NCBI RefSeq assembly: GCF_035084215.1
Contig: NC_090333.1
Span: forward strand, 28,954,001 to 29,018,000
DNA length: 64,000 nucleotides
Source: Heptranchias perlo
Taxonomy: Eukaryota
Direction of reading: 5' to 3'
The number at the start of each line of letters is the position of its first letter. The stretch's first letter is position 1. The notes under the pieces are model-generated. The model did no database searches. It was not told the DNA's origin and worked only from the letters and a program-made list of their open reading frames with translations. The position numbers and the translations under genes were made by a program. Below, one piece after another: positions 1 through 64,000 of this stretch.

Positions 1-127
1 TATTCAGTACTGAGGCTGTTGCAGCGATGCCGTCATCGTGGGGGATACTGGTGTAGAGTGCCGAGACGTCCATCATGGTGAGAAGTGTTCCTGGTTCAAC
101 TGGTCCGTGGGTGCTGCGTTTTTGTAG
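1..127 (-). mobile_element. Inverted Penelope RT fragment, head-to-head with the element at 128-1910
   Basis: 1-127 is the reverse complement of 144-270 with a few mismatches and a 16-nt spacer; runs off the window start. Confidence 0.9.
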
Positions 128-1910
128 TGACACTACAGACTTCCTACAAAAACTCAGCACCCACGGACCAGTTGAACCAGGAACACTTCTCACCACGATG
201 GACGTCTCGGCACTCGACACCAGTATCCCCCACGATGACGGCATCGCTGCCACAGCCTCAGTACTCAACACCAACAACAGCCAATCTCCAGACACCATCC
301 TAAAACTCATCCGCTTCATCCTGGATCACAATGTCTTCACCTTCGATAACCAGTTCTTTACCCAAACACACGGAACAGCCATGGGGACCAAATTCGCACC
401 CCAATACGCCAACATTTTCATGCACAAGTTCAAGCACGACTTCTTCACTGCACAGGACCTCCAACCAACACTATAGACCAGATACATCGACGACATTTTC
501 TTCCTATGGACCCACGGCGAAGAATCACTGAAGAGACTACACGATAACATCAACAAGTTCCATCCCACCATCAAACTCACCATGGACTACTCCTCAGAAT
601 CGGTTTCTTTCTTGGACACAAAAATCTCCATCAAAGACGGGCACCTCAGCACCTCACTCTACCGCAAGCCCACGGACAACCTCACGATGCTCCGCTTTTC
701 CAGCTTCCACCCTAACCACGTCAAAGAGGCCATCCCCTATGGACAGGCCCTACGAATACACAGGATCTGCTCAGACGAGGAGGAACGCGATGGACACCTA
801 CAGACGCTGAAAGACGCCCTCGTAAGAACGGGATATGACGCTCGACTTGTCGATCGACAGTTCCGATGGGCCACAGCGAACATTCGCATAGACCTCCTCA
901 GAAGACAAACACGGGACGCAACCAACAGAGTACCTTTCGTCGTCCAGTACTTCCCCGGAGCGGAGAAACTACGCCATGTTCTCCGCAGCCTTCAACATGT
1001 CATCGATGACGACCAACACCTCGCTAAGGCCATCCCCACGCCTCCACTACTCGCCTTCAAACAGCCACCCAACCTCAAACAGACCATCGTTCGCAGCAAA
1101 TTACCCAACTTTCTGGAGAACAGCGTCCCCAACACCACGCAACCCTGCCACGGCAACCTCTGCAAGACATGCCAGATCATCGACACGGATACCACCATCA
1201 CACGAGAGGACACCACCCACCAGGTACATGGTTCATACTCCTGTGACTCGTCCAACGTTGTCTACCTCATACGTTGCAGGAAAGGATGCCCCGGAGCATG
1301 GTACATTGGCGAGACCATGCAAACACTGCGACAACGGATGAACGGACACCGCGCAACAATCGCCAGACAGGAGGGTTCCCTCCCAGTCGGGGAACACTTT
1401 AGCAGTCAAGGACATTCAGCCACCGATCTTCGGGTAAGCGTTCTCCAAGGCGGCCTTCGAGACACACGACAACACAAAATCGTCGAGCAGAAATTGATAG
1501 CCAAGTTCCGCACCCATGAGGACGGCCTCAACCGGAATCTTGGGTTCATGTCACGCTACACATAACCCCACCAGCAAGGGGGAAAAAAAGTTATCTGTTT
1601 TTAATATTCTCTCTCTCTCTCTGCCTTTTGGGTCTCTTTCTCTCTGTCTGTGTAATTTGACACAATGTGTATTCAGCATACTGGGACCTACTGTTTTCCG
1701 TGACTAACCTGTCTGAACACCAACCACACCTTTTGATTGGTGTGATGGTGTCCCAGCCTAATATAAGATATGCAATTTGAGAACCTCTTACTCATTCACT
1801 CACCTGACGAAAGCTTGTGATTTTAAAATAAAATTGTTGGACTATAACCTGGTGTTGTACGATTCCTTACATTTGTCCACCCCGGTCCATCACCGGCATC
1901 TCCACATCAT
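128..1910 (+). mobile_element. Penelope-like retroelement (RT + GIY-YIG endonuclease; Neptune-like Cys linker), 5'-truncated, one nonsense codon
   Basis: ORFs 75-476 and 582-1565 are in the same frame, split by TAG at 474-476. RT motifs MDVSAL-T, GTAMG, RYIDD (483-494), FLD and LYRKPT; CxxxxCxxC linker; VVYLIRC...WYIGET GIY-YIG; stop at 1565, then 3' pseudo-LTR to about 1910. Confidence 0.93.
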
Positions 1911-50600: not shown

Positions 50601-53600
50601 ACCCTCTAGATGATTGAGAAGCTTTTTCCCTGTGTTATTCTAACGCCCCTGGACTGTTTCTGGGATGGTGCCAAGCTTCAAGGAGGTTCTGCTTACCTAC
50701 CGTAAGTACGGCTGTGTTAATTATTATGTTTCTGGGGTTTTAGGGATTGGTACTCTAAAAATTACACACTGGACGTTTCTCCCAAGTTTTTGGTCTGAAT
50801 TAAAGTGCTGCGAGGCTGAACAATGGCTCGCATTCTTCCCCTGCGATGTGGTTACTTGTCAGGCGGAGCAGAGAGACCCATGGGAATTCTTTGTCAACAG
50901 ACGGTAACTGAAGTTATTCTCATGCTAATCTGAGCCTTATTGCTGCAAGTTGCCCAACAAATAAAATGTACACATTATTCATGCCACGGGCCCTATTTAA
51001 AAAATGCCCCTGAGAAGAAAAAGGCCCTCTTTCGATTAAAATCAACTCACTGACAAGCATTCCATTCTTGAAAGATTTTTCACAGCTTTTTTTTTGTGTT
51101 TACTCTGTAGTGTTAAACTGACACTGACTCTTATTCTTTCAAATGCTTTTTTAAAAAAAAAATCAGTGTACGTATGACATTTTCAATAGTTAGCATCTTT
51201 CGAGTTTGTTTCCTCTCCTCCCTCCCCCCAAACCACAGCACTTTCCCCATTTCTCTCCTCCCCCACCCACCCCCTCCTGTCCCTTTCCCTTCACTGCCGA
51301 GGGTTAGTCTGTGTGTGCCGTCAGCTTCCGCTTCAGTTCAGCCAGTTCGAGAACGCAAGAGAGAGAGAGAGAGAGAGAGAAAAAGGAGAACAAAGAATGG
51401 CAATCTATTCTCAAAAGTGGAAAAACAAAAGGGCTTGAGCAGGCTCACTCAAGCAAGAAATAGGAGATAAAGGAGCCTCTCTTTGGTTGCAGTAGAAGGG
51501 GTTGCTGGTATGTGGGAATCAGAAAGAGTTTGCTTCATGCGATGCCTTGCTCATGAATTATTGGAGTGTCATTCTGCCAGAGTTGGACATTTTCCCCCCT
51601 TGTCTTCTATTTGAGATGTCCTGTACACTCGCGTCTCTCTTTCCAACAGATTTTTTTTTGAAATGCCTTCACTTGGAAAGAAAAAATCAAAATCATTTGC
51701 AGGCTTTATTTATGAGAAAAAAAATTGAAAAGCAGACATAAAAAGAAAACTAATAAAACAAGACAGTACCAATATTCAAAGAACGTTTTAATCATTTCAT
51801 TTCCGATAGCCCGAACTCTGGTTTCAGCTTGGGTGATGCTCTTAAGCTCAGGAGATATCACTAAAATGACAGCAAAGTCTTTATTTTTTGTTAAGAGAGT
51901 GCCTTCAAAAACACTTTTTTCAAATTTCCTTTATGGCCAATGCTGAAACATTGAATCATTTATGTTCAATAAAATTTCATTGCCATCTGTCATAGATTCT
52001 TTGCAAGACCACTGGCTTATAGTTCTCACGGAAAAAGGGACAAAGTTGTGGAATTCAATCCCCAAAACACCCATAAACTCGAAGAATCCCATGCAATAAC
52101 TCAGAATTTGACTTATTCAGTTGTCCTGATTATTTGCTACTAAACGTTAAACCTGTGGTGGTGATGTCACAGATTGTCACTTCTCTTGTGCAGACATCAT
52201 CATGCATTAAGGAGATGAAGTCTGACACCAGTCAGCATCTGCTGACAGCCACTGGCAGCACAGAAAACACCTCGCTCTCTAAACTTCACTCTGCCTTCAT
52301 TTATTTTAATATATAGATATAATATCTTAAATGAAGGCAGATGGTAGGGAGCAATTTTGAGATTGTTACCTGATCCCATTTGTTAGTTTGAAAGCTTTTG
52401 AACTTCAACCTTATATTTTGTGCACTTTATGCTTAAAATACTACCATATTATCACTCTGCGGTGTTCCAGTATTCTATAGCTCATAAAAGTAACATTTTA
52501 TATTAGTTACTTGAGTCACCCAAGCATCTTAGCTTATTTAAATGTTACCGAAAGGCTTGAAATAAAAAGGACAATCGATTGACTTATTCCTTCCCCCCCT
52601 CCAGTAAAGTAACTAAGTAAAGAGAGACCTGACAGTTCTGAAGAACTTTATTAGGTCTTGTCGAAATGGAGAGAGGCAGTCTGGGGAGGAGGGTGCAAGA
52701 TCCATATAGGAACCTCTTCTATCCTGCCTTCCTGAGTCCAGTTTACCGCTCAGCTCCCAAATGGTGATGAGCTGGCAGCAGTGGGTATTGAAATGCACTG
52801 AAATGAGAAGAAAGAAAGAGAGAGAAAAAAAAGACACTCTTTGTGGTGGCGGGAGAAAACCGTACAAAAGGATATTTTACAGATGAAGAGATTAATGATT
52901 TAATGTGGCTGAGAAGAGAGCTGTTACATGGAGAGTGGGAGGAGGAACGAGCACAATGGGGGAGGGGGAGAGACACAATCAAGAGTGGCAGCCAGCGTTG
53001 GAGACCGCAGGGCTCTGTTTGTGGGGCGTAATCTGATTATTTAGAGGAAAGACCTTTAATGAAAAATTAATTTGATCGGGACTGACACATTGCCTGGATA
53101 AGTGCAGGTGGTGAGTGCCCACTGAAGGAAAATGGGTTTATTAAAAAGTCACCTAATTGCAGCAAGAGTTTGAGATCTTAAACAGGAGGACACTAATCCC
53201 ACCTTTAAAGAAACAATAATGGTGGGAACAGGATTCTAATGTGTTGCCACATCAGCTATCAAAATGCTTTATAAAATGATTTTTTTCTTCAGATTAGCTA
53301 ATTGTTATGCATCGCTTACCTTCTATAGGGTGATTGATATTGTGCTGTGTGAACACAAACATGTTAGCACATTTGTATGAAATTCCTGCATTTACTATTT
53401 TAACTGAGACATTAAAATACTGGATAGGGCAACTTCATACAAGTGCATTAACACATTTTCTTACTAATATTGAATGACAAAATATGACTCCATTGATATT
53501 TTATTTGTTGACACGTTAAGATTAATTTTTGGTTTCGATTTTTAAAATGTTCCTGATTTTTGATGAGTTTAGTTTTAAAGGGTTTTTATAGCATCACTCT

Positions 53601-56600
53601 CCAGTGAGACATTTGTCCAATTTCCTTAAACATAAAGCCTGCAGACAGAAAAACTCACAGGTGGGGCGGCCTCTGAAAGCCTCCATAAAGGGCCTGTTCC
53701 TCTCACTCACTTGCAGGTTGCTTTTTTTTTAACAGTTTAGTCAGTCCTTCAGCTGTCAAGCAGATCTCTTTAACTATCCCAACAACATCAAGTCAGAAGA
53801 GGCAGTGAGGGTCTCTTCCCCTCGCCCGCTGCAGGAATTTTAAAAGACCCAGGACAAACCACACGCCAGTAATATCAAGACATTTGAGAGTTCCCCAGTA
53901 ATTGTCATGTCTCACTGCACAAAGTTAAGAAATGCGAGTGGGCACCGCGGCCTGATCAGGCTTTCCCTCACTTTGTTCCTCCATAATGGGATAATACATG
54001 GTCTTTTACTCTGCATCTGGCAATGATATAAGCTTAAAGGAGAAGGTACCTCTATGGGTAAGTATTGTCAATAGGAAGTACTTACCCGCAGACCACCTCT
54101 ATGTGTTTTTCATTATTTTGGAAAAAAAATTAGCAATGAGAAAACAAAATGTTAATTTTTCAGAATATTTGTATTTATGGGGTGCCCTTATGTATTCGTC
54201 CACTTCTTGCTGTAAATGCTGGGACAGATGTGGTGAGATTTTTGGACAGCAGTGTGGTTGGTGTCTTTAGAAGGTGATGGTGGACTGGTTCCTTTCAGGG
54301 TAAGCAGTACCCTTTGACAGAAGTTACCTGTAGAGTTGCCTTCTCCACTAAGACTAACATTAGAAGTGTGGAGTAACTGAAGCACACAGCAATCAGAAGC
54401 ACTTAGTGACATGGGGGAGATTTCTTCTGTTTACTGTTTGTAGCCAAGTTATACATGCATTCTTCATACATGTGTTTTTGATTTCACTACAAGTAGTGGA
54501 CAGAGGAAATCTTTCTGCACAGTAACTTAAACAGATATTATCACTTCCATAAAGAGGGAGTCTTGTCATCAGTAGCCCCCTTTTTAAATTGAATAGTTAA
54601 AGCGATTTATGATTGTCAGTAACACTTCTTTTTGCAATGTCTATTTCTGTCGGGTTTTTTTGGGCAGTAGGTATTTTTATTCAAACAGTAACTGGGATAA
54701 CATCGTCAATGGAATTGACTTGGAGAAGCTGCTGAATCTGACAGTGATAAATTAACGCCCACAGTTGAAATGACAACAGACAAAACAAAAAAATACAGAG
54801 GTTCCCCAAGTTAATGATAATTCATCTCCCTTATACCGTCTCGCTTTGTAACTCCTCCAACTCAGACCCACCCTTTCTCTGATTCACTGTTCAAATTGCA
54901 ATATCCCACATAAGCATACAAGGCTACGGACCAAATGCTGGAATATGGGATTAGAGTAGACAGGGCTTGATGGCCGGCGCGGACACGATGGGCCGAAGGG
55001 CCTCTATCCGTGCCGTATGACTCTATGACTCTAATCAACAGGATAGACAGGAAAAAGATTTTAAAGGGGTTCTGCTGGTGAAACATGCTCATTAAAGAGA
55101 CCCTTGATATTGAGACTCCCTCTGCAAATAACATCTGCTTGGTTATATTGAGAAAAGTTCAAAAAGCAACGTTAGCAAAATCTTTGAACAAACTTGGCAG
55201 AGAAATTGTAACTCCTGGCCATGTATTCCGAAACTTGCAGTGTAATTAGCATGAGGGCAGGAGCGAGTCACAGAATCCAAAAGCCTTGGTTAATAGAATG
55301 AGAGCAAGGCCTAGTCAGAAGAGGCGTGATACATTGGCCTGAAATTGCTCAGGATCGTGTCTGACGGGACCTTCCATCAGTGCTGACCTTGCTGGAGTTT
55401 GCGGGGTTAGTGGGAGAGCACTTCATTTACATGAGCTAGACGGGCACAAGTGCCATTTTGGTTGCATCTCCAGTGCCAAATTGTTCACACCAGCCTGAAA
55501 CTTCAGCACTTGCCCACCTGTGGAGCAGGCGACCCTAAGCCACACCCACCCACACCCACCCCCAGCCATCATCCCCTCAGCACTCCAAGCTAGGTAGTTG
55601 ATCTATAAAAATCATTGTCTTCAGCGTTTCAGGCCGCTTGCCTGCCCTCGGCCATATAGTGGGGCTCACATACACCTTGTGGATGCCGCTATGCCTCCAC
55701 ACGCACAACATACAACGATGTGGAGATGCCGGTGATGGACTGGGGTTGACAATTGTAAACAATTTTACAACACCAAGTTATAGTCCAGCAATTTTATTTT
55801 AAATTCACAAGCTTTCGGAGGCTTCCTCCTTCCTCAGGTGAACGAAATGAAATTTCGTTTCATTTCGTTCACCTGAGGAAGGAGGAAGCCTCCGAAAGCT
55901 TGTGAATTTAAAATAAAATTGCTGGACTATAACTTGGTGTTGTAAAATTGTTTACAACATACAACAACAGGTCCCACTGGAGCTTGAGGAATGCAAACTC
56001 CCGGCTCTGAGAGTCCCCACCCTTCGTCTGCCACCTGACCATCATTCTGCCCCATACAAGACAACCAGGAGACTCCTCGACATGGCAGTGACCCAGTGCA
56101 ACCAGATTTACATCATTTTCTGTGGGCTCCTGCTGGTCTCCTGCCAGAATTACAGTGGGAGACCAGCAGAATCCCCAAGGCATTTTGGATCCATTGTCAC
56201 TAAGGTGAGGGTAGAAGTTGGTTCTGGAGTCATAGAGTTATACAGCACGGATAGAGGCCCTTCGGCCCATCGTGTCCGCGCCGGCCATCAAGCCCTGTCT
56301 AATCTTATCCCATATTCCAGCATTTGGTCCGTAGCCTTGTATGCTATGGCATTTCAAGTGCTCATCCAAATGCTTCTTGAATGTTGTGAGGGTTCCTGCC
56401 TCCACAACCCTTTCAGGCAGTGAGTTCCAGACTCCAACCACCCTCTGGGTGAAAAAGTTCTTTCTCAAATCCCCTCTAAACCTCCCGCCTTTTACCTTGA
56501 ATCTATGTCTCCTTGTTATAGAACCCTCAACGAATGGAAAAAGCTCCTTAGTATCCATCCTATCTGTGCCCCTCATAATCATGTCCCCCCTCAGCCTCCT

Positions 56601-59600
56601 CTGCTCCAAGGAAAACAAACCCAATCTTCCCAGTCTCTCTTCATAGCTCCAGCCCTGGTAACATCCTGGTGAATCTCCTCTGCACCCTCTCCAAAGCGAT
56701 CACATCCTTCCTGTAGTGTGGCGACCAGAACTGCACACAGTACTCCAGCTGTGGCCTAACCAGTGTTTTATACAGCTCCATCATAACCTCCTTGCTCTTA
56801 TATTCTATGCCTCGGCTAATAAAGGCAAGTATCCCATATGCCTTCTTTACCACCTTATCTACCTGTTCCGCCGCCTTCAGGGATCTGTGAACTTGCACAC
56901 CAAGATCCCTCTGACCCTCTGTCTTGCCTAGGGTCCTCCCATTCATTGTGTATTCCCTTGCCTTGTTAGTCCCTCCAAAGTGCATCACCTCGCACTTTTT
57001 CGGGTTAAATTCCATTTGCCACTGTTCTGCCCATCCGACCAACCCATCTATATCGTCCTGCAGACTGAGGCTATCCTCCTCGCTATTTACCACCCTACCA
57101 ATCTTTGTATCATCAGCGAACTTACTGATCATACCTTTTACATTCATATCCAAGTCGTTAATGTAGACCACAAACAGCAAGGGACCCAGCACCGATCCCT
57201 GTGGTACCCCACTGGCCACAGGCTTCCAGTCACAAAAACAACCTTCGACCATCACCCTCTGCCTCTGCCACTAAGCCAGTTTTGTATCCAAAGTGCCAAG
57301 GCACCCTGGATTCCATGGGCTCGTACCTTCTTGACCAGTCTCCTGTGGGGGACTTTATCGAAGGCCTTACTGAAATCCATGTATACCACATCCACTGCGT
57401 TACCCTCATCCACGCGCCTAGTCACCCCCTCAAAAAATTCAATCAAATTAGTCAGACATGATCTTCCCTTGACAAAGCCATGTTGACTATCCCTGATTAA
57501 TCCTTGCTTCTCCAAGTGGAGACTAATTTTGTCCTTCAGAATTTTTTCCAATAATTTTCCTACCACTGATGTTAGGCTCACTGGCCTGTGGTTCCCCGGT
57601 TTTTCCCTACTCCCCTTCTTGAATAATGGTACTACATTAGCGGTTCTCCAGTCCTCTGGCACATCCCCTGTGGCCAGAGAGGTTCTGAATATATGTGTCA
57701 GAGCCCCCGCAATCTCCTCCTTTGCCTCACACAGTAGCCTGGGATACATTTCGTCCGGGCCTGGGGATTTATCCATTTTTAGGCCTGCTAAAACCGCCAA
57801 TACCTCCTCCCGCTCGATGTTAATATGTTCGAGTATATCACAGTCCCCCTGCCGTATTTCTATGTCTACATCGTCCTTCTCCATAGTGAAAACAGATGCA
57901 AAAAATTCAATTAGAACCCCTCCTACATCTGCCGGCTCCACACACAGATTGCCATTTTTGTCCCTAATGGGCCCTATTTTTTCCCTAGTTATCCTCTTAC
58001 CCTTAATATACTTATAAAACATCTTAGGATTTTCCTTTATTTTGCTCACCAGTGTTATTTCATGGCCCCTCCTTGATCTCCTAATTTCTTTTTTAAGTAT
58101 CCCCCTGCACTTTTTGTACTCCTCTAGGGCTTCCTCCGTCTTTAGCCTTTTGTATCTGCCAAAAGCCCTCCTTTTTTTCCTAATCCATTCTCGTATATCC
58201 CCTGACATCCAAGGTTCCCTGGAGTTCTTGGAACCACCCTTGACCTTTACGGGAACATGTTGCCATTTTATGGTCTCAATCTCCCTTCTGAAAGACTCCC
58301 ATTGCTCCGATGCGGATTTTCCTACAAGCAGCTGATCCCAGTCCATTTTGGCCAGATCCTGCCTTATCCTATTAAAATCGGCCTTCCCCCAATTTAGAAC
58401 CTTTATTTCCGGCCCCTCCCTGTCCTTTTCCATGACCACCTTAAATCTCACCGAATTATGGTCACTGTCACCAAAGTGCTCACCTACTAGCACTTCTTCC
58501 ACTTGGCCGGCCACATTCCCTAGAATTAGGTCCAGTACCGCCCCCTCTCTTGTAGGACTTTCTACATGCTGGCTCAAAAAGCTCTCCTGGATGCACGTTA
58601 AGAATTTTGTACCCTCTAAGCCTTTTACACTCTGAGTATCCCAGTTAATATTGGGGAAGTTGAAATCCCCCACTATTATTACCCTGTGATGCTTCTTCTT
58701 GATTGACAAACATAGTGTTATAATGATCAATATTATTGCACTTTTGATAGTGCTGTGTTGTATAAAGGGTAATTATTTATTTTTTCTCTTTGATTTGTCC
58801 TTTATGAAGCTCCATCTACTGGCTTGCTTAAGAACCATCAAATCTTGCCCAATGAGAGTTGTTGACTTTGAATACCAGTCAAGACTGTGTTTTGAACTTT
58901 CAGCCCATTGGTTGAGCGTACAACAAATTGTCCATGAGCTATCCCATCAAACTCCAGTGAACACTTAGAGTTCATCCTGCATGGTAATTAATACAGGCAT
59001 TGCGGAGTTGATTGCTCATTCTGTTTAGAGACTACCTGTCGCAGACTACTCATGATTCATGCATCAGCGGTATCAATCGGAGGTGGCGGAGCATATGCTG
59101 GCTTAGCCAAAATGAACAATTTATGGATTATTTTTCTTTCAACAGAGGAAAACCAGATATTCAATGGATGAACCTTGACCCTGTGCAGCTCCTGGATGAA
59201 CTGGGGCAGTTTACATCTTTGGAGGGATTCAGGGAGATGCTAGATAAGGCCCAAGTAGGACATGCATACATGGATAGACCCTGCTTACAACCAGGGGACA
59301 CTGAGTGCCCTCCAACTGCCCGAAACAAACAATCACTGGAGGTAAGCCCTTTGGCAATTTATTTCTGTACTTTCGGCCTCGAGGTAAATTTTGGTCTTTA
59401 GCACTCCCAGTGCAGAGCTCCACATGCCAGGAGTAATACTGGGAATTTGGGCGCAGCCCCAGCACACAAAGCTCTACTTTGCGAATGCAAAACAGCAGAA
59501 TTTACCCTGTAGTTTCTGACAGTTGTGGCCAGTGTACTTTTTAGTTGCGGCGGATATATGAATATTTTTTTAGAATGCCTTCGACCGGGTGAAGTTTGTT

Positions 59601-61555: not shown

Positions 61556-62008
61556 AGATTCTTTTTAAAAAATAAACTATTTAAAAGAATTATCATTAAC
61601 TTTAACATCCTTCTATCTATTTATTTCTGAGTGCTGATAATGTCATTGGAAGAACTATCGTAAAGAGGAGATACAGAACCTGCCAGTATGCAGGAGCTAA
61701 ATTAATATCAGTAAAGATGCAGAGTCTGAAATTCCAGGAGTCCCACTCCACCACCGGCAGTTACGCAGAATAGAAACCCTGGCTGCCTGTGCCCAAAGAC
61801 ATAAAGCCCATCTGAAATTGTGGGAATGGGGTCAATTGTATATTTGGGTCAGGCCACTGGTGCCTGCAAAGGGGCTTCAGCAACACCCGTCCCAATTCAC
61901 CTTGTAAGTTTCTCTTCCTGAGGTCTCACAGCATTCCTGGACTGAAGATAAAGGAGCTTTTTTTAAAAACCTTAAGCTCCACTGGGAGCCTTTTGCCTGC
62001 ATAAGCAA

Positions 62009-63107
62009 GATCCCCTCTGGGATTGAGAAAGGTTATCGATCCCCTCTGGGATTGAGAAAGGTTATCGATCCCCTCTGGGATTGAGAAAGGTTATCGATCC
62101 CCTCTGGGATTGAGAAAGGTTATTGATCCCCTGTGGGATTGAGAAAGATATCGATCCCCTCTGAGATTGAGAAAGGTTATTGATCCCCTCTGGGATTGAG
62201 AAAGGTTATTGATCCCCTCTGGGATTGAGAAAGGTTATGGATCCCCTTTGGGATTGAGAAAGGTTATCGATCCCCTCTGGGATTGAGAAAGGTTATCGAT
62301 CCTCTCTGGGATTGAGAAAGGTTATCGATCCCCTCTGGGATTGAGAAAGATATCGATCCCCTCTGGGATTGAGAAAGGTTATCGATCCCCTCTGGGATTG
62401 AGAAAGATATCGATCCCCTCTGGGATTGAGAAAGGTTATTGATCCCCTCTGGGATTGAGAAAGGTTATTGATCCCCTCTGGGATTGAGAAAGGTTATTGA
62501 TCCCCTGTGGGATTGAGAAAGATATCGATCCCCTCTGAGATTGAGAAAGGTTATTGATCCCCTCTGGGATTGAGAAAGGTTATTGATCCCCTCTGGGATT
62601 GAGAAAGGTTATTGATCCCCTCTGGGATTGAGAAAGGTTATTGATCCCCTCTGGGATTGAGAAAGGTTATCGATCCCCTCTGGGATTGAGAAAGGTTATT
62701 GATCCCCTCTGGGATTGAGAAAGGTTATTGATCCCCTCTGGGATTGAGAAAGGTTATCGATCCCCTGTGGGATTGAGAAAGATATCGATCCCCTCTGAGA
62801 TTGAGAAAGGTTATTGATCCCCTCAGGGATTGAGAAAGGTTATTGATCCCCTCTGGGATTGAGAAAGGTATCGATCCCCTCTGGGATTGAGAAAGGTTAT
62901 CGATCCCCTGTGGGATTGAGAAAGATATCGATCCCCTCTGAGATTGAGAAAGGTTATTGATCCCCTGTGGGATTGAGAAAGGTTATTGATCCCCTGTGGG
63001 ATTGAGAAAGGTTATTGATCCCCTTTGGGATTGAGAAAGGTTATTGATCCCCTCTGGGATTGAGAAAGGTATCGATCCCCTCTGGGATTGAGAAAGGTTA
63101 TTGATCC
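62009..63107 (+). repeat. Minisatellite, about 38 copies of a 28-29 bp unit GATCCCCTCTGGGATTGAGAAAGGTTAT(C/T)
   Basis: Direct head-to-tail repeats with no spacers; intron 7. Confidence 0.98.
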
Positions 63108-64000
63108 AAACTCTGGGACCAATAACCTTAGTCTTAAAGAATTGTGTGATCTTTTCTGGGGCCTCCATGGAACTCTAACCAGCTAAGAGTTAGCAAGAGC
63201 TCCATTGAGAATTACTGAGGACATAATAGGCGGTATTCCTGAGATAGCTTGAAGACTCCTCCAGACATATCCCTTGATGCAGGGGTTGGAGGGTTGGGCG
63301 GAAGATTCTCCCACCAGGATTTCTTGTAGCGGTGCAAATGGGGCCGACTCCAAGCAGAACCGCATTCTACCCCATATCCTGTTCCCCCAACCAGAGATCC
63401 GCCACACTTAACGCCTTGGTCAATGTGGGACTTCAGGGCCAGTCATTAACCCAGACAAGCTCTGGATCTTCAACGGTGGTCATGTTAATTCAGCTACTTC
63501 ACATTGTGGTGTTCAGGAATTCTTCTGAACCAGTCTCCACTTAAATACCATCTGCGTTCTGTATTTTAACAGTTTTATTTAACATCACACAGAAATACAT
63601 TGGAGGATGGAAAGGATGTTAACATAATATCAAAAATAATATTATAACACCTTTTATTTTAAAAAAATATTATAGTGCCAGTGAAACTCTCACTTTAAGA
63701 ACAGCTGTCAGCTTTAAGGTAATGCTGGATATATTTGCCCAAAATATTGCTTTGTTTCCATTAATAATTAATGGAAATGTGTATTTTTAATTGAGTGGGG
63801 GAAGGCAATCGTTGTCTTTAGTTGTGCAGTAGCACAGGATGTCGATTCTGTAAAACACTGTCAATGGTGGTCGTGTACTAGTTTGCAGCTGCTATCACAA
63901 TTATGTGAGTTTCCTCTCTTCCCGAACTAATCAAGTCCTTTCCAGGGTTACCAATTTACACCTTCCAGCAGACTCTTCAAAAAGGCACTGGTAGAAATTG

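Follow-up and report, generated by a model that had tools for sequence, protein, structure and literature searches.

The palindrome between two Patched exons of a Heptranchias perlo gene, probably PTCH2, is a back-to-back stump of a Penelope-like element (PLE), a short form that this genome contains in thousands, and the element likely copies its RNA start onto both cut DNA ends at once. As a locus the intronic palindrome is real and ordinary. An inverted copy, a tail, a target-site duplication (TSD) and opposite-strand hammerhead pairs have all been published for PLEs; the interest lies in the sister copies. Coordinates (Table 1) refer to the window, the whole stretch of 64,000 nucleotides that was analysed (contig NC_090333.1, positions 28,954,001 to 29,018,000).

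The two arms are exact reverse complements of 100 nt each around the loop TTTCG, as in the preliminary description, which had reported a perfect 205-bp palindrome. The left arm alone continues for a further 36 nt, and with this extension it matched window positions 1808-1908 at 90% identity over 101 nt, in agreement with the earlier view that it reaches 36 nt into a Penelope 3' end. The unit does lie between 12-bp direct repeats, as had been described, with one detail absent from that account: the last 4 nt of the right arm are also part of the right copy. The letters of the central junction were found again within the first 12 nt of the arm, as would be expected of a short templated slip. The structure supports a recent single insertion of a hammerhead-bearing PLE end, inverted and flanked by a TSD, as first suggested. 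A very high-copy short repeat adjoins the element, with two opposite copies 1.2 kb apart (56227-56290 and 55000-55031).

Table 1. Positions in the window of the palindrome, its parts and related features
Feature	Position	Strand	Remarks
5'-truncated relative, same PLE family	119..1908	+	93% identical to full unit; hammerhead without stem II
Probable PTCH2 exon 5' of host intron	50610..50702	+	approximate bounds
TSD, left copy, 12 bp	55705..55716	+	12 bp is the modal TSD, 50/109 head-to-head pairs
36-nt PLE tail, only on left arm	55717..55752	-	immediately 5' of ORF start codon in full-length units
Left arm, tailed copy: PLE 5' leader/3' end	55753..55852	-	
Minimal type I hammerhead (antisense in the probable PTCH2 pre-mRNA)	55804..55842	-	mirror of 55868-55906, motif scan
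Central junction	55853..55857	.	unique to this intronic locus among 18 listed
Right arm, tailless copy, same element end	55858..55957	+	final 4 nt in common with TSD
Initiator-like motif	55860..55866	+	A 55862 is 30 nt from first TATA T in full-length copies
Minimal type I hammerhead	55868..55906	+	extra A 55880; predicted cut after 55901; definition from PMC4209133
TSD, right copy	55954..55965	+	direct repeat of 55705..55716
Probable PTCH2 exon 3' of host intron	59147..59345	+	approximate bounds

That the palindrome is an assembly fold-back artefact is scarcely credible. Perfect palindromes can be library artefacts, and no contig among the short-read contigs listed spanned the centre; against this stand the asymmetric tail, the 12-bp TSD, unique flanks on either side and thousands of similar structures with diverged arms. 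Both outer junctions were also crossed by short-read contigs with zero differences, over 23-24 nt, which is less than the 31-letter bridging rule, and in contigs possibly from the same sample as the assembly. An empty-allele joint was absent from the 15 listed of 210 joints, and one contig carried the left junction unbroken.

Patched exons on the + strand were found at ~50.6 kb and 59.15 kb, on either side of the palindrome, in keeping with its earlier placement inside PTCH2. By elimination the host gene is probably PTCH2, because the other Patched paralogue in the genome is closer to PTCH1 (106 bits against PTCH1 structures vs 62 bits for the host gene); the label "intron 5" follows mammalian exon numbering. 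Since the host gene lies on the + strand, the antisense arm is transcribed first. The locus shows no sign of function for the insertion. Beyond the 3' exon, a tandem array of short units, seen as repeated translations, occupies window positions 61900-63170.

Each arm had been described as holding a complete minimal hammerhead, and the motif was found as described, with the addition of an unpaired A at 55880 between core A9 and stem II. On the plus strand it consists of stem I (55868-55872/55902-55906), core (55873-55879), stem II (55881-55885/55889-55893), GAAA and a palindromic AGCT. Hallmarks of the PLE type are present at 55880-55900, namely an extra nucleotide between 9 and 10.1, G10.1-C11.1 and a palindromic helix III; the extra nucleotide and palindromic helix III are features of minimal PLE hammerheads (Cervera and de la Pena 2014, PMC4209133). 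An Rfam scan, suggested in the preliminary description, detected no hammerhead family at E<=10 in either the palindrome or a single arm, and otherwise returned just miRNA-type hairpin matches under the gathering score. Folding gave pair probabilities of 0.90-0.94 for the hammerhead stems in a single arm with its 3' flank vs 0.00 in the full palindrome, and helices I and II are thus predicted to form in the single arm. Cofolding of two copies yielded a predicted dimer without stem III pairing, which speaks weakly in either direction. It had been proposed that the upstream arm traps the sense ribozyme in a duplex, and that this explains why the intron tolerates the insertion. The first part remains physically plausible, given the loss of the hammerhead helices in the modelled palindrome; the second is unneeded, because a lone minimal PLE hammerhead showed no in vitro cleavage (PMC4209133), the ribozyme of an anole PLE needs the PLE protein for cleavage (PMC11167929), and arms often occur unpaired (91 of the 308 sampled). 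By analogy, cleavage by the lone minimal hammerhead in the palindrome is not expected.

Across 10 hammerhead variants, 99% of cells were paired, and one G-C/A-U pair was compensatory; an equally high score was reached by 14 of 500 shuffles, slid controls gave 27-55%, and the kinship of the variants remains in the control. Eight sites polymorphic between lineages were all N7, loop II or pair-keeping, part of the hammerhead core having been held fixed by the search pattern in this scoring. Helix I varied by wobble changes and helix II by a single G-C/G-U/A-U series, with further changes at N7 and in loop II. Such fold-keeping variation points to selection that would act on the hammerhead in source elements, not at the PTCH2 locus, and the hammerhead of the palindrome would then be a passenger.

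The full unit of the parent element is 3,081 bp long and encodes a 901-aa ORF with an RVT_1 domain (E 3e-10). Protein-domain tests were carried out on the full unit in L077, which belongs to a sister subfamily of the palindrome's, and the GIY-YIG match was weak (E 7e-4, 20.3 bits, under the 22.6 cut-off). A CX4CXXC linker could be read in the ORF translation, matching the CX2-5CxxC linker before the endonuclease that defines the Neptune/Nematis clades (PMC8557442). As judged from this translation, the parent is an endonuclease-positive PLE, of Neptune/Nematis type by its linker. L077 (G000:C1:4460000-4469999) contains three tandem units at 3,081-bp spacing, which is the pseudo-LTR arrangement; the last of them is tailless, and the 901-aa ORF is open in the unit translated. 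In full-length units the tail end abuts the ORF start codon, and therefore an arm consists of the 3' end of one unit plus the 5' leader of the next. Contigs from three runs guessed to be RNA and one DNA run covered the full unit in all 30 bins, and none of the 15 listed of 82 joints on it was intron-like. The window's own 5'-truncated copy was ruled out as donor of the arm by its 90% identity and broken hammerhead; its stem II was lost (1795-1825) when 20 nt between two direct repeats of 4 nt were deleted.

To establish abundance, the 3.25-Gb genome was searched for parts of the arm. A 36-mer of the arm gave 43,901 exact matches and this hammerhead variant 11,468. Head-to-head core pairs numbered 4,716 at 0-30 nt and 2,021 at 31-60 nt (~6,700, a few loci being counted twice), with 1 and 0 in reversed-pattern controls. 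The ~6,700 recurrences of the architecture have varied centres and come from several subfamilies. The palindrome's own subfamily has 64 short junctions. The preliminary description had proposed checking whether the junction recurs. All 18 loci with the junction flanks and a loop of 3-12 nt were listed, and the loop TTTCG occurred in one of them; likewise, among 50 of the 64 subfamily loci, the junction of this locus was present once. The junction is thus a one-off and the architecture is not. Near-perfect hairpins of 90-130 bp number in the thousands, and intronic ones are a possible bulk source of dsRNA, to go by their sequences.

These counts bear on the proposal that the palindrome is a non-coding, ribozyme-only derivative. 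Taken as an independent lineage, a retrozyme- or MITE-like unit spreading as a whole and tolerated through silencing by the antisense arm, it is very improbable. Some palindrome centres do recur identically at many loci, folding predicts full sequestration of the hammerhead, and an origin from PLE ends has been reported for retrozymes (bioRxiv 10.64898/2026.07.22.740005). The recurrent centres, however, are those that microhomology at the +30/31 end would remake, and they occur in several subfamilies. The unit also has neither a TATA box nor the ORF-proximal RNA required by the anole protein (PMC11167929), it is not a head-to-tail tandem, and arm lengths form a continuum up to >3 kb. Judged by sequence, a self-propagating element is not supported, the same unit and junction not having been found at many loci.

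The 5' ends of the arms were compared with the promoter of long copies. Of 49 long reference copies, 48 have a conserved TATA box 39-48 nt upstream of the core; the exception is a compound copy. The least selected arms, 95 in number, come from the first 100 matches of the 3' 36-mer, which cover just the first 5.75 Mb of contig C1; 22 were long and 49 started at TATA+20..46, with 28 at TATA+28..33. Start density was 4.7 per nt at +28..33 vs 0.04 per nt over -240..+10 (~100-fold). The mode was +30/31 both where TATA and core are 39-41 nt apart and where they are 44-48 nt apart, so that starts shift 7 nt relative to the ribozyme: arm 5' ends track the TATA box, not the ribozyme. Single arms that are not long behaved likewise, 17 of 52 starting at +30..33. 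The palindrome's own arms start at +25/+26, 4-5 nt ahead of the main peak; their subfamily has a further cluster at +24/25, which needs a second transcription start or another cause.

Position A 55862, within the Initiator-like motif, is probably the main transcription start. For this assignment we took the Inr consensus and TATA spacing to apply at 55860-55866; it rests on motifs, the transcript data being contigs of runs guessed to be RNA. D. virilis Penelope has an internal promoter without a TATA box (PMC2377424), and the TATA reading is therefore not transferable from the type element. Three other sources of the 5' ends were considered. The ribozyme cut site was not established as the origin of stumps: 7 of the 95 arms start at +68..77, near the cut, and head-to-head junctions downstream of the core number 403 genome-wide vs ~6,700 upstream; most of 50 downstream junctions listed lie on internal palindromes, with ~4 exactly at the cut (by eye). 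Stalling of the reverse transcriptase (RT) at the ribozyme was rejected, since ends follow the TATA box rather than the core. A splice acceptor, by comparison with the D. virilis intron that ends at helix I, was dismissed in that the +30 ends have no AG and no common upstream sequence.

For the sister copies, 220 loci gave 404 arm hits and, after removal of duplicates and of arms near a locus end, 308 distinct arms. Loci were drawn from four lists: L001-L045, chosen for identity to the arm or the junction in the window; two lists with the first 100 matches of, respectively, the 3' 36-mer and the hammerhead variant; and short junctions. They contained 109 head-to-head pairs, 107 once two duplicates were removed. 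Exactly one tail was present in 98 of the 107 (p 5e-20 vs 50%); the nine exceptions were six tailless-tailless pairs, two tail-tail pairs and one unclear case. TSDs, 70% AT, were 12 bp long in 50 of 109 pairs and 10-15 bp in 97. The 91 unpaired arms, some of whose partners may fall outside the fetched stretch, were 46 tailed and 45 tailless. At two loci (L006 and L045), independent palindromes with different centres share an identical 12-bp TSD within another repeat, a target hot spot.

At the eight lineage-diagnostic sites the arms agreed in 52 of 61 pairs, where 20% would be expected at random, and in 13 of 14 pairs with arms >300 nt apart. The tailed arm reached further 5' in 36 pairs and the tailless arm in 34, with 14 equal, and therefore neither arm was simply copied from the other. 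Among 72 short pairs, the centre had an overlap of 0-3 nt in 34, a larger overlap in 4 and an insertion in the remainder. A/T homopolymer runs are seen at the centres of L038, L006 and other junctions, as from slippage or untemplated addition before joining. DNA that is not part of the element, 40-200 nt long, sits in the centres of L060, L088 and L095, and that of L088 resembles the flank. At L139, L037 and other junctions the hammerhead or leader carries short internal duplications; with its core duplicated, a hammerhead might form a dimer in cis.

LINE-1 elements are known for twin priming, in which cDNA is primed from both cut ends and the inverted product, flanked by a TSD, is joined by microhomology. 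We consider it probable that the PLE stumps arose in a comparable way, by twin priming at two internal start sites of the RT, with synthesis running off the 5' end of the mRNA before end-joining. Behind this model stand the observed family identity and copy numbers, the 12-bp TSD, the single tail per pair, 5' ends that cluster downstream of the TATA box, and arms that agree with each other. The palindrome would be a dead-end insertion, two short copies of the hammerhead leader laid head to head from one staggered cut. A TATA/Inr promoter in the pseudo-LTR would start the mRNA ~10-17 nt upstream of the hammerhead core, and an RT-endonuclease dimer would cleave AT-rich DNA with a 12-bp stagger. 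The two 3'-OH ends would then prime separately, one at the tail-end start site and one 36 nt further upstream, in most cases with a single RNA, or RNA of a single source, as template. With priming in the 5'-most leader, both cDNAs would stop at or near the cap, and their ends would be joined via 0-3-nt overlaps or small insertions. Loss of one cDNA would leave a single tailed or tailless stub, in equal numbers.

Unlike LINE-1 arms, which copy different parts of the RNA, the two PLE arms would copy a single stretch, from two fixed start sites separated by 36 nt. A fold-back origin was weighed as an alternative. Self-priming antisense RNA, or a run-off cDNA that snapped back, would be copied to a hairpin, and a staggered endonuclease cut would leave one tail. 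This route accounts for perfect arms, for shared variants (52/61) and for the one-tail rule. A short palindrome containing the AT-rich motif preferred by the enzyme marks the boundary of the tail, many junctions lie on internal palindromes, and antisense self-priming was proposed by Arkhipova et al. 2013 (PMC3846280). We nevertheless regard it as unlikely. Its geometry predicts that one arm type is always longer 5', against the 36:34:14 observed, and loop-less centres, with both arms ending at the +30 A and a 2-nt overlap, occur at 7 of 50 subfamily loci (by eye). The 5' ends fit the sense start in unpaired arms too, and TSDs flank single stubs of both kinds (tailed 12/25, tailless 15/28).

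A second possibility is that two independent RNAs serve, one per protomer and per cut end, with an asymmetric dimer giving the one-tail rule. This is a variant of twin priming, not a separate origin, and we hold it to be improbable, more so than fold-back. Nine of the 61 pairs disagree at lineage sites (L155 at three sites, with a 12-bp TSD), and a single RNA therefore cannot account for everything; a dimer is also predicted for the anole PLE (PMC11167929). Concordance of 85% vs 20% at random nevertheless means that one source element would have to dominate each cell. TSD-flanked pairs with discordant arms were also seen at L081, L092 and L123, as from two templates in some events. The concordance itself can also be explained by later arm-to-arm conversion or by one dominant source per cell.

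Twin priming might go further and be obligatory in every integration, the dimer giving each cut end one start site on one RNA, with mini-palindromes as leader run-offs that map the transcription start to the nucleotide; our judgement on this stronger claim is evenly divided. If true, antisense self-priming would give way to it as the model for head-to-head PLE inversions, the tail on just one side would be accounted for, and PLE integration chemistry could be read from the genome. The stump population thus bears on how PLEs make inverted units and one-sided tails, for which the published idea is antisense self-priming; in vitro work of 2024 describes two start sites, not their pairing, and its main text has nothing on inverted units or joint use of the two sites (PMC11167929). 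No paper stating the obligatory reading was found in the main texts of the open-access literature. For the existing in vitro assay, sharp predictions follow from the one-tail rule, the 36:34 split and ends at TATA+30.

Compared with known systems, the palindrome resembles insertion units of endonuclease-positive PLEs in its head-to-head pseudo-LTR ends, one-arm 36-nt tail, TSD and TATA/Inr-like motifs. Such units typically comprise an inverted, 5'-truncated copy and a TSD and bear a tail of 30-40 bp on one end (PMC8557442, PMC3846280). The palindrome differs from them in that both arms are shortened to ~100 nt and copies of the form run into the thousands; the TSD mode is 12 bp, against 8-10 bp in the rotifer examples. 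Opposite-strand hammerhead pairs 100-700 bp apart are already described (PMC4209133); relative to those metazoan pseudo-LTR hammerheads, the one here has a helix II of 5 bp and is known from sequence. Chlamydomonas has also been reported to contain very short PLE insertions, with a median of 128 bp (PMC9977147). As with non-LTR retrozymes, the unit is non-coding, with a type I hammerhead and a PLE pseudo-LTR origin; retrozymes (bioRxiv 10.64898/2026.07.22.740005) are head-to-tail tandems of monomers each with a hammerhead, whereas here there is a single head-to-head pair with no sign of self-propagation. A functional comparison is offered by the anole Poseidon element PAc, which nicks and extends both strands in vitro and uses uncleaved RNA; its two RT start sites lie on either side of the tail, and it is predicted to form a dimer (Frangieh et al. 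2024, PMC11167929). Unlike PAc, whose tail lies inside the ORF, the present element is apparently of Neptune/Nematis type and has its tail just 5' of the start codon; as in PAc, targets are AT-rich, and by analogy it too may use two RT start sites bracketing the tail, with both strands nicked and extended.
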